A stretch of 64,000 bases of DNA from Mustelus asterias (Eukaryota): assembly GCF_964213995.1 (NCBI RefSeq), contig NW_027590164.1:248001-312000 (forward strand), given 5' to 3'. The notes below the pieces were generated by a model that saw only the letters and a program-made list of their open reading frames with translations, was not told the DNA's origin and searched no databases. A program made the position numbers and the translations under genes. Each line of letters opens with the position of its first letter. Within the stretch, counting starts at the first letter, position 1. Below are positions 20,433-62,018 of the stretch, piece by piece.

Positions 20433-20569
20433 TTGGAATCTCCTTTTACAGATGGTTAGAAGAAGAGGATTTTTACAGCAATCTCAAACCCCAAAAAATG
20501 TGTATTTCTTAATTTCAAGCCACAATTGACACATGACTCTTGTAATCTCCTTTTGCAGGGAGTTAGAAT

Positions 20570-22826
20570 ATTTGCACTTGACGGTCCGTGAGGGGGGCGT
20601 GGTCATTCACTTGCTGAACGTCTACACCCCAACCGCCGGACCGCAGCAAATGACTTTCTATGAGAAAGTGTCCGCTCATCTCGACACCATTGCGGGGGGT
20701 GAATGCATTATCCTCGGGGGAGATTTCAACTGTACCCTCGAGGCACGGGACCGCACCGGCCCCTCGCTGCGCACCCCGGTGATGGTGAAGTTGCGGGACC
20801 TGCTCGGGTCCCACGACTTGGTGGACATTTGGAGACATCTCCATCCTGGCTCCAGAGCTTTCAGTTACGTGAGGCCTGGAGTCGGAGCGTCCAGGCTCGA
20901 CCGCCTTTACATTTCGAGGGCGAACGTGTCCGGCGTGTCTTCGGCTCCATGCGGCTGGTGTCGTGCACGGACCACAACCTGATGTGGGCGGACTTTGTGC
21001 CGTCTCGTGTCCGGCGGGGGTCCGCGTACTGGCACTTTAACAACAAGCTGCTGGAGGACGAGCGCTTCCTGGACTTGTTCCGTCGATTCTGGGCCGGCTG
21101 GAGAAGGAAGCGGGGAGGCTTCCTCTCCTTGAGGCTCTGGTGGGATGTGGGCAAGACTCACGTCCGTACCTTCTGTCAGGAGTACGCAAGGGGGTCGACA
21201 AAGGGACGGAAATCCAGGCTCGAGGAGTTGGAGAAGGAGGCACGTCTCAGTCAGCCCGACGCGGACCCGGCCCTGTGTTCGGAGTACAGGGAAAAGAAGG
21301 TGGTGAGGTCGCGGCTCCAGTTCCAGGTGGACCTGGACCGCGGCTCCCCCTTCTTCTACTCGCTGGAAAGAGGGCGGGCTAACCGTCAGCAGCTCCTTAC
21401 GCTGCTGGCCGACGACGGTTCCCCCGTCTCGGATCCCGAGGGCATCCGGGCCATTGCCCGGGATGATTACACCTCCCTCTTCTCTCCGGATCCGTCCAGC
21501 GAGGATTCCCGCAGACCTCTGTGGGAGGACCTGCCGCAGGTCAGCCCGGAGGGCGTCGGCAGGCTTGAAGCCCCCACCACCATGGCCGAGCTGACCGGCG
21601 CCCTCAATGGCCTCAGTCGGGGCAAGGCCCCGGGGCTGGACGGGCTGACAGTAGAGTTCTCCTGGGGAGCGACTACGCGGGGGTCCTGGGGGAGAGCGTC
21701 GCTACCGGGGAGATGCCCCTTTTGTGGCGCAGGGCCATCATTGCCCTGCTGCCCAACAAGTGGGATCTATGCCTCCTAAAAAACTGGCGCTCGGCCTCCT
21801 TCCTCAGCACGGATTATACAATCTTTGCCAAGGCTATTGCTTCATGCCTTGGATCCGTGCTGGACCACATGATCCACCCTGACCAGTCCTACACGGTCCC
21901 GGGCCGTTGTATACACGATAACCTCCAACTGGTCCGGGACCTAATCGGGGACGTGCTCGATGGCGGAGGGGCGGGCTGGATGAGTCCCCGCGTGCTGGCT
22001 GAGCGCGTGGGGACGACCGTCCGGCGCGCGGCCAAAGCCATCCTAGACCTTAGGACGGTCGTGCTCGGCCCCGAAAATATAAACTCGAGGCGGCGCAGGC
22101 GTGCGGTGGGATCCCGCCCGAGCGTTCCCCTGTTCGGGCGGAATTCCACAGTGGCCCAAATCCTCAACCCCCCTCCCTGGGTGAGGTGCCCCACAGCCTG
22201 AGCCGCCTCGCGGAAATGCCCTCCGTGCCTTTTTCTCCCGCGCGGATGCGTTTCCTGTGCGGGCTGCTGCTGCACACCCTCCACTACCGCCTCCTCGCCT
22301 GTCGCCCGGATACACCTTGGCGGGCCTTGTTGCCACCGGGCGGCGGAGGTCCCTGCTGGAGGTCCCTCTATGGAGGGATCTCCCCCAATTACGTCGGGGA
22401 CCTGGGGTGGAGGGTGATGCATGCAGCAGTTCCGCACAACCGTAGGATTCACTGGTTCACGGGCTCCGAAGACTGCCCTTTCTGTGGCCTTGCAGAGTCC
22501 GTGGACCATGTCTATGTTGTGTGTCTTAGGCTGCACTCCCTTTTTGTTTCCCTAAAGAACCTTTTAATGATGTTTTGTTTGCACTTCAGTCCCACGCTCC
22601 TGATCTACAGACACCCGGTGCGGATATAACGCACCCCAACCCCTGGGCATTGCAGGGGTTGGGGTGTGTTATTGACCCTGATAATCACATTTTAATTTGA
22701 TGTTTTAAGTTTCCTTTGTACTTTGATTTCTGTTCGGGCTGTTCCCCCTCCTTTTGGGGAGCTGCCCCTTTTACTTTGTCCTGACTTAATTTGAGTTTGT
22801 TTAATTGGTTTGACCTAAAAAGGGGT
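20570..22826 (+). mobile_element. Tx1-clade non-LTR retrotransposon, 5'-truncated with internal deletions
   Basis: APE motifs LNVY, GGDFNC, SRLDRLY, TDH; WHFNNKLL and LRLWWDVGK; RT start GKAPGLDGL, HPDQSYTVPGR; C-terminal CPFCG..ESVDH..C; ORF2 ends IDPDNHILI* at about 22700; short 3' UTR with a GC stem-loop. Confidence 0.92.
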
Positions 22827-22985
22827 CCAACATCTTTGAGTAAAACACTTTCTTTTCAACCCCTTTTCCATTTCTTTTCTCATTCTGGGGGAAATTGGGG
22901 ACTTGCAGCAACTGGAGGGAAAGGAAGTGAATCCAGGGAGGGTGCAGACTCTGGAAAGGTTGGTCCAGGTTTCTCTCTCTCTTAA
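22827..22985 (+). other. ZNF-family exon-1 donor and intron-1 start (donor mutated to TTGAGT)
   Basis: Collinear with the 46587-46430 (-), 59320-59212 (-) and 61231-61310 (+) copies. Confidence 0.85.
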
Positions 22986-57117: not shown

Positions 57118-58128
57118 TCACTTGTGAACTTGCTGGTGTGTCCGCAGGCTAGATGACTGAGTGAATCCCTTCCCACACACACAGCAAGTGAACGGTCTCT
57201 CCCCAGTGTGAACTCGCTGGTGTATCCGCAGGTGGGATGACGTTCTAAATCTCTTTGTGCAGTGAGAGCAGCTGAACGGTCTGTCCTCAGTGTGAATGCG
57301 CTGGTGAATCATCAGTTCCCGAGAGCTTTTGAAATCACTTCCACAGTCAGAACATTTAAATGGTCTCTCATTGGTGTGAGTGAGATTGTGGTTCTGCAGG
57401 CTGGATGACTGAGTGAATCCCTTCCCACACACAGAGCAGGTGAACGGTCTTTCCCCAGTGTGAACTCGCTGGTGTATCCGCAGGTGGGATGGCGTTCTAA
57501 ATTTCTTTGCGCAGTGAGAGCAGCTGAACGGTCTCTCCCCAGTGTGAATGCGCTGGTGGATAATCAGTTCCCGAGAGCTTTTGAAACCACTCCCACAGTC
57601 AGAGCATTTAAAGGGTCTCTCATTGCTATGAGTGACTTTGTGTTTTGACAGGTTGGATAACTGCGTAAATCCTTTTCCACACACCAAGCAGGTGAACGGT
57701 CTCTCCCCAGTGTGAATGCGCTGGTGAATCATCAGTTCCCGAGAGGTTTTGAAATCACGCCCACAGTCAGAGCATTTAAAGGGTTTCTCATTGCTGTGAG
57801 TGACTTTGTGTTTCGACAGGTTGGATAACTGCATAAATCCTTTCCCACACACCAAGCAGGTGAATGGTCTCTCTCCAGTGTGAACACGCTGGTGTTTCTG
57901 CAGATCGGGTAAATGAGCGAATCCGTTCCCACACTCAAAGCAGATGAACGCTCTTTCTCCAGTATGAACCAGCTGATGACGCTGCAGATTATATAACCGA
58001 GTGAATCTCTGCCCACACACAGAGCAGGTGAATGGCCTCTCCCCGGTGTGACTGCGTCGATGAATTTCCAGTTTACAGGGAGCTCTGTATCTCTTCCCAC
58101 AGTCCCCACATTTCCACCGTTTCTCCAT
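57118..58128 (-). CDS. C2H2 ZNF gene 6, 12 fingers, intact (336 aa)
   Basis: ATG 58128 (MEKRWKC) to TGA 57118; acceptor 58488-58486; candidate donors at 59311-59306 and 60773-60768. Confidence 0.9.
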   Translation of the reverse strand: MEKRWKCGDCGKRYRAPCKLEIHRRSHTGERPFTCSVCGQRFTRLYNLQRHQLVHTGERAFICFECGNGFAHLPDLQKHQRVHTGERPFTCLVCGKGFMQLSNLSKHKVTHSNEKPFKCSDCGRDFKTSRELMIHQRIHTGERPFTCLVCGKGFTQLSNLSKHKVTHSNERPFKCSDCGSGFKSSRELIIHQRIHTGERPFSCSHCAKKFRTPSHLRIHQRVHTGERPFTCSVCGKGFTQSSSLQNHNLTHTNERPFKCSDCGSDFKSSRELMIHQRIHTEDRPFSCSHCTKRFRTSSHLRIHQRVHTGERPFTCCVCGKGFTQSSSLRTHQQVHK

Positions 58129-58778
58129 GGTGCGGGTGTCCTTGTGACTCTCCAGGTTAAACAATCAGTTAAATCTCACACAGAACACGGGTACAGTCTC
58201 TCCCGCTGTGAATGCTGCGATGTATTTTCAGGCTGTGTAACTGGTTAAAGCTCTTTCCACACTCAGTGCACTGGAACACTCTCACTCGGGTGTATCTGTG
58301 CCTTGGTGCTTTTCCAGTCACATTGATATTAAAGGCCCGTTGATGCAGACAGAACAGAGAAACATTTCTCCTTCCAGATTCAAAGGCTGATAATATTCAG
58401 GTCCGATGAATTGAGTGAGGGTGTCGGATGCTGATGTGATGTTTGTTTCAAGATTTTGGTCTGTCAATCCTCACCTTCTCATATCCTGTAAACGAGTTTG
58501 AAAAATTCATCAATGTCAGCACAGGATAGAAATTCAGAACAGACAATTCTAGTTTCTATGGAACATTCTTCCTCTCTCATTCCCCAAAAGCTGTATATCT
58601 CCATCCCAAACACTCTCCCTCCATTCTCACTCTGCTGTATCTAATATTCACCCTCCCAATTCTCCTGAAGGTGCTGATTGACAGATCCATGCTCACTGCT
58701 TCCTGTCCTGGACACAGAGAGCTGGAAATCTCCATGCTGGCTGCCAGACAGATATATGTCTGTCTGACTGGACTAACA

Positions 58779-59120: not shown

Positions 59121-59125
59121 ATAAA

Positions 59126-59198
59126 TGTTTCTGCCCGGTTTCGAACCAGGGACCTTTCGCGTGTGAGGCGAACTTGATAACCACTACACTACAATGTG
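59126..59198 (-). pseudogene. tRNA-Val(CAC) pseudogene
   Basis: Val-CAC body, but the 5' acceptor strand is CACATTG instead of GTTTCYG. Confidence 0.85.
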
Positions 59199-59347
59199 TG
59201 GAATGTACAGACTGGATTCACTTCCTTTCCCTTCAGTTGCTGCAAGTTCCCAATTTCCCCCAGAATGAGAAAAGAAATGGAAAGGGGGAGAAAAGAAAGT
59301 GTTTTACTCACAGATGTGGGCCTCTTTTAAGGTAAAAGAAGCGGCTT

Positions 59348-59418
59348 TGCATTGCCCAGGAATCGAACCCATGCCTCCCGCATGACAGGCAAGAATTCTA
59401 CCACTGAACCACCAATGC
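59348..59418 (-). pseudogene. tRNA-Gly(GCC)-derived pseudogene, anticodon now GTC
   Basis: GCATTGGTGGTTCAGTGGTAGAATTC...CTGTCAT...GGTTCGATTCC...CAATGCA; mismatches in the T and acceptor stems. Confidence 0.88.
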
Positions 59419-59533
59419 ACAGGGCAGAGAAAACTGCTCAGTTCTTTCAACCAGTGCTTTCACATGCAAAGAAATGTGATGATTTGCAGCAGCAAATTCA
59501 ATGCTACTAACACACACACAACAACACTGTTGG

Positions 59534-60767
59534 TTTCTTTTTGTTTATTACAAATACGTTAATACAAAACAATTACAAATACACAAAAAACAAATGTGAA
59601 AAAATACATTACCAATGGCTAACGCCATCCATTTATCAGTTACTACCTTCCATTTCGGAAGGGTTCATCGTCAATTACAGTTTTCCAGGGCATTGCCCTC
59701 AAAATACACCTTCATTTACAAATCATAATCTACAAATCTACAAACATTAACACAACACTACAACTGTACACAACAAAAAATAAACACTGAAGCATAAGGG
59801 CACCGTCCCCTGGGTTTGTCCACCTGCCGGGGGATGCAACCCTCCAGTGGTACTCATATCCGGGGGTTACACCTTACGGATGTTCAGCCGGAGGGGGGAA
59901 ATGGGGGAAACCACCCCGCCTACTCAATCCGGAATCCCTTCCGGAATTTCAGCCGGGGCGGTGGGAGAGTCTCTCCAGGGTACTCAGTTCGGGCCTGCCT
60001 TCCCAATTTTTCTCCCGGAGAATAAAATCCCTCTGGTGTTACTATGTCCGGGGCTTCACCACCCAGAACTTTCCCCAAGTGGATGTCACACCCCCCGGGG
60101 GTGACTCCATCCAGGGGGGGATGCCCCCCAGGCCACAATAACGCAAGAAAATAGACGGGGGCCGGAACCACCAACTATCATAACAGGAAAACCACATATT
60201 ACAATAACAAACAATCCATGAACAACCATACAATTGTGAAACATTTCGGAGGCATCGCCTTCCAGAGCTTCGCCCATCAACATTCCACCGTCCGAAGTCG
60301 ACAACGCTCAACTACAGTCCTCCAAAGTCCACCACTCCGGGCCAGAACTTCCAAAATCACACCCATAGGGGCTGCACCGTCTGGGGTCACACCTTCCGCG
60401 GCTGAACCTTCCGAAACCATAGTTCCCAAATGGCTCCTCCCTGGCTTGGGTCTTCCGAGATTGCATCTACCTGGGCCACGCCTTTCAAGGCACAGGAATC
60501 CCAGCGAGAGCAGCATTCAACAAGCCCCAGCCGAAACAAAAAGTTCTTACACAAGTCACGAACCCAAGCACTTGAAACAGAAACTTCACGCCGACCAAGG
60601 CGTTCCTCCCAGCGGCCACATTTCCAAAAGCTCACCGCAAGGCGCGCATTAAGCCCGCCTTGAACTCCTTATCCTCTGCCCGCCCCCTGCCTGGAGCACA
60701 CCATACTGGCCAACACGCAAAGCGAACGGCCAATATGGTGGACTGGCTGGACAATCCAATCTTTCCC
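59534..60767 (-). mobile_element. Probable L1/Tx1-clade 3' fragment (decayed ORF2 end, GT-rich UTR, AATAAACAAAAAGAAA tail)
   Basis: Tail and base composition are seen directly; protein similarity (YGVL..., KCGRWEER..RREVSV) is weak. Confidence 0.5.
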
Positions 60768-60784
60768 ACTCACAGATGTTGGAG

Positions 60785-61105
60785 AGAGGAGGAAGATTGA
60801 ATCTGTCCACTCCCCCAAGGCCCGGGGCTGCGCATGTCCAAGGGAGAGGGGAAGCTGCGCATGTGCGGGGGAGTGCCCATCCACTGACCTTCATTCTGAG
60901 GTGTTGACCAATGGGAACTCTGGAGGACCGGAAGGACTTTGGTCCTCCAGCCAATCAGAGCTCCCCATTGTCTGAATGCGGAAGTTAGACAATGAGCTTG
61001 TTCAGCTGCTCATTCCTGCCCAGCAAAGCTGCTGCTGCTTCTCTCTGAATGGAGATTGAACTTCAGACAGACTCAACCTTCCTCCTGTCTCTAATATCTG
61101 GGAGA
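60785..61105. promoter_or_regulatory. Second copy of the ZNF promoter between ZNF6 (-) and ZNF7 (+); left CCAAT arm missing
   Basis: 60820-61000 aligns to 46883-47062: two TGCGCATG sites, CCAAT at 60908 and 60951, TGGAGGACC-N11-GGTCCTCCA, GCGGAAG. Confidence 0.8.
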
Positions 61106-61109
61106 GTGT

Positions 61110-61182
61110 GGGTCAGTGGCGCAATGGATAACGCGTCTGACTATGGATCAGAAGATTCCAGGTTCGACTCCTGGCTGGCTCG
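61110..61182 (+). tRNA. tRNA-Arg(ACG)-derived copy with anticodon ATG
   Basis: Matches the vertebrate Arg-ACG sequence as I recall it except C4->T and C35->T (ATG at 61143-61145); TTTT at 61214-61217. Confidence 0.9.
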
Positions 61183-62018
61183 ATGTCAATTTGAAAAATA
61201 GTTTGTGAACTCCTTTTGACCTAAAAGAGGCCAACATCTGTGAATAAAACACTTGCTTTGTTCCCCTTTTGCGTTTCTTTTGCATTCTGGGGGAAATTGG
61301 GGACTTGTTGAATTTTTAACTTCCAGGTCACCACTCGCTGCCTAAATAAAAATCCTCCTCACATTCTTCATGTATCTGTAACCAGGTAATACAGTGCATT
61401 ACACACATCATCAGTCTGCTCATTTATGGCCAAATGTAAAACTTTAACGTGGCTGTCAGCTTGAAGATTAATCATGGATCATTTGCACTTCCACAACCCT
61501 CTGAGGCAGCGGGTTCCAGGTAATGACCTTTCTGCACCAAAATAAAATTCTTCCCCACATCCTTCCCTTTCTCCCAATCCAGTTATCCGGTCCCACATAT
61601 GGCACAGATTTTAATTTCTAGTGTGTAGGCCGGTCGTTACACATAGATTTTCAGATCTCTGTGTCCAATATAGAAAGTGGTCAGCATGGATCCATTAATC
61701 AGCCTGAATCAGCACCTTCAATAGACTTGGGAGGTTGTATACTCAGGAGAGCGCAGTGAGAATTGAGGGAGAGTGTGTGGGATGGAGATTGACAGATTTT
61801 GGAGAATGAGAGAGGAAAGAATGTTCCATAGAAACTAGAATTGTCTGTTCTGAATTTCTATCCTGTACTGACAATGATGTCTATTGTAAATTCCTTTCAT
61901 AGATATCAGGAGGTGAGGATTTATAGACAGAAATTTCAAACTAAACATCACATCAAGATTTGACAGTCATTCGATTTATTGGGACCTGAATATCATCGAC
62001 CTTTGAATCTAGAAAAGC

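Follow-up and report, generated by a model that had tools for sequence, protein, structure and literature searches.

Probable separate insertions of a tRNA-Gly/LINE-tail chimera and a non-coding retroposon at the end of a likely zinc-finger first exon

The known targets of sequence-specific non-LTR elements are rRNA, snRNA, microsatellite and transposon sequences. In the SINEU/Tx1-Mar system of crocodilians, as far as the available part of PMC4494074 describes it, a non-autonomous element without a known promoter has a target in common with Tx1-clade LINEs and adjoins them there, features that resemble those of the element described here (element A). The same text proposes that SINEU is transcribed from flanking sequence and reports that two crocodilian Tx1 families favour LTR retrotransposons. 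For R2, the available text of PMC3774820 describes annealing of upstream 28S sequence on the RNA or cDNA, which is the closest described mechanism to that considered below for the leader of element A, while degenerate R2 copies can multiply by unequal recombination alone in the portion available of PMC4370867. Chimeras of U6 with LINEs and of tRNA with LINE-1 have a Pol III RNA 5' of a LINE 3' end through template switching, similar to the chimera at this locus, and their tripartite forms are put down to double switching or two events (PMC4476161 and 10.1101/2025.02.02.635956, in the parts available); the primate tRNA/L1 chimeras in the latter are mostly antisense tRNA halves. SVA carrying a MAST2 exon, as summarised in the available part of PMC4494074, is non-autonomous, transcribed from a host promoter and carries part of a host gene, as element A appears to do. 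No paper on zinc-finger first exons as a target of Tx1 or of non-autonomous elements came up in the literature searched, outside Repbase, most subscription journals and supplements.

The stretch of DNA analysed (the window, 64,000 nt) contains a C2H2 zinc-finger (ZNF) cluster and belongs to a genome of 3.68 Gb that is probably shark-like, to judge by its repeats and immune genes. All of the pieces listed in the initial annotation are present on the minus strand where it placed them. A likely bidirectional ZNF promoter with CCAAT-like boxes lies, together with the two putative non-coding first exons, at 60783..61090 with no strand assigned and is colinear in the paralogues. It is followed on the minus strand by the 15-mer CCAACATCTGTGAGT (60782-60768), an upstream copy of the ZNF exon-1 end with its likely splice donor, CCAACATCT joined to GTGAGT. 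Element A, a 1234-bp non-coding retroposon (59534..60767, minus strand), has a fixed 5' end, a GT-rich 3' part and an A-rich terminus with AATAAA, and ends AATAAACAAAAAGAAA. Directly 3' of it, from 59533, is CCAACAGTGTTGT, which begins with the 6-nt target remnant CCAACA (59528..59533). Next in the same orientation are a 109-nt spacer (59419..59527), a decayed tRNA-Gly copy (59348..59418; Rfam 39.6 bits, also found by ARAGORN), a pre-tRNA 3' trailer with terminal TTTT (59334..59347, from the comparison with its source), the 13-nt 3' terminus of a second family, family B (ACCTTAAAAGAGG, 59321..59333), and the 3' target copy CCCACATCTGTGAGT (59306..59320), after which comes the ZNF intron-1-like start AAAACACTTT. 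A C2H2 zinc-finger coding exon lies downstream of the insertion site (57118..58164, minus strand). When up to 3 mismatches are allowed, the window has 11 occurrences of the target 15-mer where 2.96 would be expected, and none of 100 shuffles gave as many as 11. In addition, CCAACATCT joined to GTGAGT and then AAAACACTTT recurs at further ZNF genes within the window. The consensus, and the intron-like flank conserved in paralogues, would make this junction a likely splice donor, and the insertion site is likely the end of a probably non-coding ZNF first exon.

The 114-nt spacer, searched against the genome, had 40 matches among 159 candidates, and 30 loci were fetched, all 30 of which have spacer, tRNA and B-type tail (the tRNA-Gly module) at the ZNF target. 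Element A is present at 11 of the 30 and absent from 19. The empty paralogue L186 is colinear with the window at 96.9% identity over 62024-60941, 100% over 60873-60777 and 98.2% over 59533-57500 (2048 nt compared downstream), and the two halves overlap by CCAACA only (L186 3290-3295); L187 and L188 have the same pattern. Compared with the empty paralogue, the window has 1243 extra bases, which are TCTGTGAGT plus the 1234-bp element. The existence of paralogues that have the chimera and no element A means that element A likely arrived second. Because the overlap is CCAACA only, 9 of the 15 bases of the upstream "duplication" are foreign to the site, and by this comparison the upstream 15-mer is not a true target-site duplication: CCAACA at 60782-60777 is local and is the only sequence duplicated here by insertion of element A, while TCTGTGAGT (60776-60768), missing from the empty paralogue, likely arrived with the element.

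The serial insertion at one site by two different families that was put forward in the initial annotation is borne out by the empty paralogues, by the tail, which is from another family, and by a source locus that lacks element A. The accompanying idea that the target-site duplication regenerates the target is not supported in that form, as the reused site had a 6-nt remnant only and the full upstream 15-mer is missing from the empty site. The alternative raised there, a single read-through or 3' transduction that copied tRNA, tail and spacer along with element A, is scarcely credible. It would account for element A directly upstream at 11 of the 30 module loci, with varied promoters, but as an origin it is contradicted by the 19 of 30 module loci without the element and by the source tRNA locus, where the 1.2-kb element is missing. 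Filled and empty loci moreover belong to common intron lineages, and the filled ones are scattered among the empties on the module tree, where presence of element A takes 6 changes, at least 3 of them forced by starred branches. Among the loci fetched and in the pattern search, no copies of element A with the module were seen in unrelated introns or off the cluster. A non-ZNF source with element A and then spacer and tRNA-Gly was also looked for, and the source array has no element A.

This source came to light through the spacer, for which the initial annotation had proposed a search for a tRNA-Gly locus using 59419-59520. Such a locus exists: a 33-nt spacer pattern also matches a 1.8-kb tandem array on C1 and C2058, in which the spacer sits between two tRNA-Gly(GCC) genes. 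Spacer, tRNA and trailer in the window are 87–91% identical to the source over about 194 nt, and the similarity stops at the T-run terminator after the second tRNA-Gly gene; the anticodon of the window copy is now GTC (Asp by ARAGORN), while those of the source genes are Gly-GCC. The spacer is 143 nt at the source, where its longest T run is 3, and is 5'-truncated in the window. By this match the "leader" of about 100 nt is the spacer between tandem tRNA-Gly genes, and its length would be explained by a read-through dicistronic Pol III transcript, the likely origin. Human tRNA genes without a nearby terminator are described in the available part of PMC3141230. What had been put forward as a possible third, degenerate copy of the target consists of CCAACA, 6 nt that do come from the target, and then of sequence that belongs to the tRNA spacer; in the empty paralogues CCAACA is likewise the only target sequence 5' of the spacer.

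The chimera is a sense small-RNA copy that ends at the U-tract and is directly joined to a LINE 3' end. A sense pre-tRNA with this structure fits template switching of the kind described in the available text of PMC4476161. In contrast to the primate tRNA/L1 chimeras in the accessible part of 10.1101/2025.02.02.635956, this is an unprocessed sense precursor with spacer and trailer, with a 13-nt LINE tail and at a preferred site. The module copies have one common pair of junctions and one intron lineage, which indicates a single origin and then spread by segmental duplication. Outside the source array, none was seen off the cluster in the spacer pattern search and the loci fetched, and amplification of the module by retrotransposition as a SINE was rejected on these grounds. 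Two further tRNA-Gly pairs with the flanks of the array are found inside ZNF-cluster contigs (L184 on C112 and L185 on C138), with several variants in common with the chimera, and these may be more nearly related than the C1 array to the locus from which it was copied.

The 13-nt tail in the window is one substitution off the common 13-nt tail ACCTAAAAAGAGG and one base off the 5-A tail. There are 159 exact genome matches to ACCTAAAAGAGG plus the target; in the first 30 of these the B tail is preceded by LINE body in 13, by a tRNA-Arg copy with trailer in 12 and by nothing recognisable in 5. A broken family-B LINE copy is present in the window itself (20530..22841 including the target, plus strand), with the ZNF target at the end of its B tail (22827-22841). 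Its 20530-22629 segment has Pfam matches to PF03372, PF00078 and PF13966 in order (E 6e-5, 9e-4 and 5e-3, all under the curated cut-offs), which are remnants of endonuclease, RT and zf-RVT in the L1/Tx1 order. From its ORF2 C-terminus, family B is putatively Tx1-like. All 64 matches to the 4-A tail stand at the ZNF target. The 5-A tail has 1155 matches, and most of the 100 listed are dispersed and show a preference for the short motif (G/C/A)CAA. The idea that family B is strictly ZNF-specific, which holds for the 4-A tail and fails for the 5-A tail, was therefore rejected: the family favours the ZNF site and is not confined to it.

Other tRNA sequences are seen at or near the same target. At the donor of the opposite gene there is a second chimera (61091..61245, plus strand) made up of target remnant, tRNA copy, trailer, tail and target. 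It contains a tRNA-Arg(ACG)-derived copy (61110-61182), a trailer with terminal TTTT, a family-B tail (61219-61230) and the target (61231-61245). The trailer has 59 matches, at loci that include L034 and L036, and no source gene for it was found within 2 mismatches. One copy of the tRNA-Arg chimera with its tail is off the cluster, before CCAAC (L282, G000:C10:92419700-92421100), and is 115/119 identical to the cluster copies L036 and L056; this would suggest a re-mobilised chimera, a proto-SINE, although a convincing duplication was looked for there and not found. At L281 (G000:C7:66210300-66211700) a tRNA-Arg copy with the same trailer is joined to other sequence after TTTTGA, presumably of a CR1-type LINE, and may be a second type of chimera. 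Some arrays of element A (L107, L128, L020) are followed by CCAACATCAGAGAGG and then by a stretch that resembles tRNA-Val; the intron in the window also has a tRNA-Val copy, truncated and beside a SINE (59124-59193, minus strand). On these matches tRNA-Val is a third tRNA type at or near the target. Another zf-RVT LINE family has at least 15 copies about 8035 bp apart at G000:C24:44.82-44.93 Mb, a spacing that marks them as a tandem array of near full-length units.

A probe for element A gave 116 matches among 23 scored of 370 candidates, and three of its motifs have 172, 168 and 160 exact genome matches. It is a young non-coding family. Its 5' end, searched with a pattern that excluded T two bases upstream, follows GT in 100 of 100 among the matches listed (168 matches), and all 78 units at ZNF loci are preceded by the 15-mer or a variant of it. 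Units are about 1240, 1290, 1860 and 2480 bp long and form head-to-tail arrays of up to six, nearly always with 15-nt linkers; the same doublet of 1240 and 1290 recurs at several loci. Over 31 loci the median identity is 98.5% for the units and 82.8% for the host exon ends, so element A would have spread after the ZNF paralogues diverged. Dispersed copies are 96–99% identical to it. Of 20 that are 5'-truncated, 13 have a duplication of at least 9 nt (10 of 12–17 nt, two long and one marginal), and in the other 7 none was found. The variable 5' truncation, fixed 3' end and duplications are the signature of target-primed reverse transcription. By hand count among the matches listed, 55 of 100 3' ends abut the ZNF 15-mer or a close variant, a figure inflated by arrays and segmental duplication, and 6 of 100 abut the tRNA module. 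The collected 3' flanks show a ZNF preference and not strict site specificity: element A prefers a multicopy target, and its second preferred site is an LTR-like repeat. An inverted B tail beside a fragment of element A on C3 was considered as twin priming and rejected, as it is inside a 145-nt duplication and was therefore pre-existing.

The 1.23-kb element had been described as an L1/Tx1-like fragment, for which no homology to L1/Tx1 proteins could be demonstrated. It has no ORF and no Pfam match in three frames, and no protein homologues were found, including by HMMER with a 93-aa stop-free frame against 1.84 billion representatives. Neither family B (by tblastn) nor 30 of 150 zf-RVT loci have similarity to it, and no autonomous partner was found in the 7 kb upstream of dispersed 3' ends. 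A resemblance to a Tx1 C-terminus was dismissed when the local alignment failed a shuffle test. With no coding origin or autonomous partner found, element A is not classed as a Tx1 element. Nothing inside it scores above threshold as a tRNA or as an Rfam family, and a SINE with an internal Pol III promoter in a small-RNA head was therefore rejected; at the 5' end there is no Rfam ribozyme match up to E 5.

At five non-ZNF loci, on C3, C13, C16, C19 and C26, element A lies in a short repeat with CCAAT, TATA and AATAAA motifs, for which "LTR-like" is used here as a putative label, and in all five it still has ZNF exon-end sequence at its 5' end. In the C13 and C16 copies the exon end is kept up to GTCAAC, beside an internal deletion. 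At the four of these loci that were aligned, the upstream repeat copy and its local downstream counterpart agree across CCAAT and TATA, with 0–1 mismatches in the first 66–249 nt (1 in 249 nt on C3, a locus-specific insert included) and 12–21 in the last 85–94 nt; past the matching part the upstream copies switch to donor-type sequence that is common to the loci. This is what would be left by a cDNA that began near the host start and annealed to the homologous transcribed part of the target, and each such insertion in the LTR-like repeat would duplicate the local promoter ahead of the new copy. On C19 (L091/L092, G000:C19:82811500-82830500) at least 7 units lie in the LTR-like repeat, and behind each of them the 3' end of element A is repeated in extra copies of 168 nt. 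In the ZNF arrays, two linkers have an A-run and then exon-1 sequence, and in one of these the 78-nt exon is unlike the local exon. The carried exon sequence makes it likely that element A is co-transcribed with its target gene.

In 31 complete insertions the 5' and 3' 15-mers are identical in 9, differ once in 7 and have at least two differences in 15, one of which is a 1-nt shift artefact. It could be argued from the first two classes, from the 15-nt linkers and from the duplications of about 15 nt at dispersed copies that the target is restored at every insertion by a genuine 15-nt duplication, with element A having its own promoter at the fixed 5' end, where the junction RNA folds better than shuffles (z -2.83). 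This is very improbable, given that 9 of 15 nt are missing from the empty site, which contradicts it at this locus, that a 5' copy of the local CCAACAGTGTTGTTG was seen at no filled module locus, and that the off-cluster copies have ZNF exon sequence upstream of the 15-mer.

What the locus probably records, on the genomic comparisons above, is two separate insertions, of the tRNA-Gly/B-tail chimera and then, likely later, of an element A that is likely transcribed from host promoters with a ZNF exon-1 leader. In the first step, of which the source of the chimera and the end point are seen, the family-B RT would have used the ZNF exon-1 end as its primer, reverse-transcribed 13 nt of the family's RNA and then switched template to the U-rich end of a read-through transcript of two tRNA-Gly genes; copying would have halted within the inter-gene spacer, with the upstream target copy trimmed to CCAACA. 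Segmental duplication, the second step, carried the chimera to dozens of ZNF paralogues. In the third, for which the order comes from the empty paralogues and the chemistry is conjectural, element A would have entered the CCAACA remnant by target-primed reverse transcription, with a LINE protein in trans. Its cDNA, ending in host exon-1 sequence, would have annealed to the matching upstream exon, rewriting a full donor in front of element A. Such annealing would explain the fixed 5' end and a copy behind the host promoter in intron 1, and the rewritten donor would be a new target for the next round and so give rise to arrays.

A wider proposal, possible but short of probable, is that element A, with neither promoter nor protein of its own, programs both ends of its integration by host-derived RNA. 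Bases read through at the 3' end would pick the site and the captured 5' leader would anneal downstream of the host promoter, so that each insertion gains a promoter and a fresh target. Element A would have made one host switch, from ZNF first exons to the LTR-like repeat, and the ZNF landing pad would also gather chimeras of pre-tRNA and LINE tail, at least one of them re-mobilised as a proto-SINE. Against the mechanism set out in the preceding paragraph, the loci with element A and the module have several promoter types, while all 19 empties have one promoter family. This difference shows that recombination or conversion through element A shuffles loci, and the 5' junction in the window could be a recombinant. 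The window promoter type is found with element A also at L016 and L097. At L189 (C89), L190 (C784), L067, L069 and L072, which have element A and the tRNA-Gly module, the promoters differ and the downstream ZNF segments are related, which would suggest promoter swaps among ZNF paralogues by recombination within the element. A poorly resolved tree of 78 units of element A did not tie variants of the 5' 15-mer to unit lineages: they take 16 changes on it, and those of the 3' 15-mer take 17.

In the arrays, some units (L095, L126) show no difference across the 540 nt compared, as unequal crossing-over would give, and the arrays probably grow by both routes, insertion and unequal recombination. 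It is unlikely, though less so than a regenerating duplication, that element A is a dead 5'-truncated copy spread mainly at the DNA level, through gene conversion, ectopic recombination and unequal crossing-over, and that the window junction is a recombinant between an element A at an intact donor and one before the tRNA module. The promoter swaps at filled module loci, the identical units inside arrays and the recurrent 1240 and 1290 doublet would all be expected of such spread, for which the degenerate R2 of stick insects, as the portion available of PMC4370867 presents it, is a precedent. DNA-level spread does not account for dispersed copies that are 96–99% identical with duplications of 12–17 nt, which require recent reverse transcription, nor for ZNF exon sequence carried to non-ZNF chromosomes, and a single empty paralogue is colinear with both flanks of the insertion in the window.

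The 3' flank of LTR-hosted donors is TCC(C/T)TGATT and that of ZNF-hosted donors is CCAAC. A two-marker haplotype in the 3' part of element A, read by eye because automatic scoring was blurred by indel placement, is present in 9 of the 11 LTR-hosted tails that could be scored and in none of 56 that are ZNF-hosted. Among the dispersed copies, of which 12 of 20 were scorable, all 7 with a TCC(C/T) flank carry it and none of the other 5 does (Fisher p 0.0013, in a small, post hoc test; three of the seven TCC-flanked sites may be the LTR-like repeat itself in diverged form). Dispersed copies thus tend to land at sites like the 3' flank of their donor. In a fourth step of the mechanism, a few bases read past the 3' end of element A would pair with the nicked DNA, and it is likely that such pairing of read-through bases with the primer biases the site. 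A role for 3' read-through is reported for R1Bm and SART1.

In comparison with SINEU, as the available part of PMC4494074 presents it, element A targets the ends of first exons in a family of protein-coding genes and has no snRNA head; its junctions show a carried host exon, promoter duplication and a target switch linked to the flank. Unlike R2 in the accessible text of PMC3774820, where the host unit is rDNA, element A would have a Pol II gene family as its host unit, and it is weak in site preference, non-coding and without an Rfam ribozyme match at its 5' end. SVA with the MAST2 exon (the available summary in PMC4494074) differs in that element A re-enters paralogues of the exon that it carries, and the leader would serve both integration and access to a promoter. 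Element A appears to live on the first exons of a protein-coding family, inside intron 1, where little harm would be expected. Its junctions would be natural evidence on two debated steps in vertebrates, second-strand priming by a host leader and site choice by 3' read-through, both of them relevant to RNA-guided retrotransposon insertion tools. In the tRNA chimeras a SINE is seen partway to its birth, and the source locus can be traced. Zinc-finger paralogues may also exchange promoters by recombination through element A.

Two open frames on the minus strand (247-2024), at the start of the window and beside the ZNF cluster, resemble T-cell-receptor V segments in a motif.
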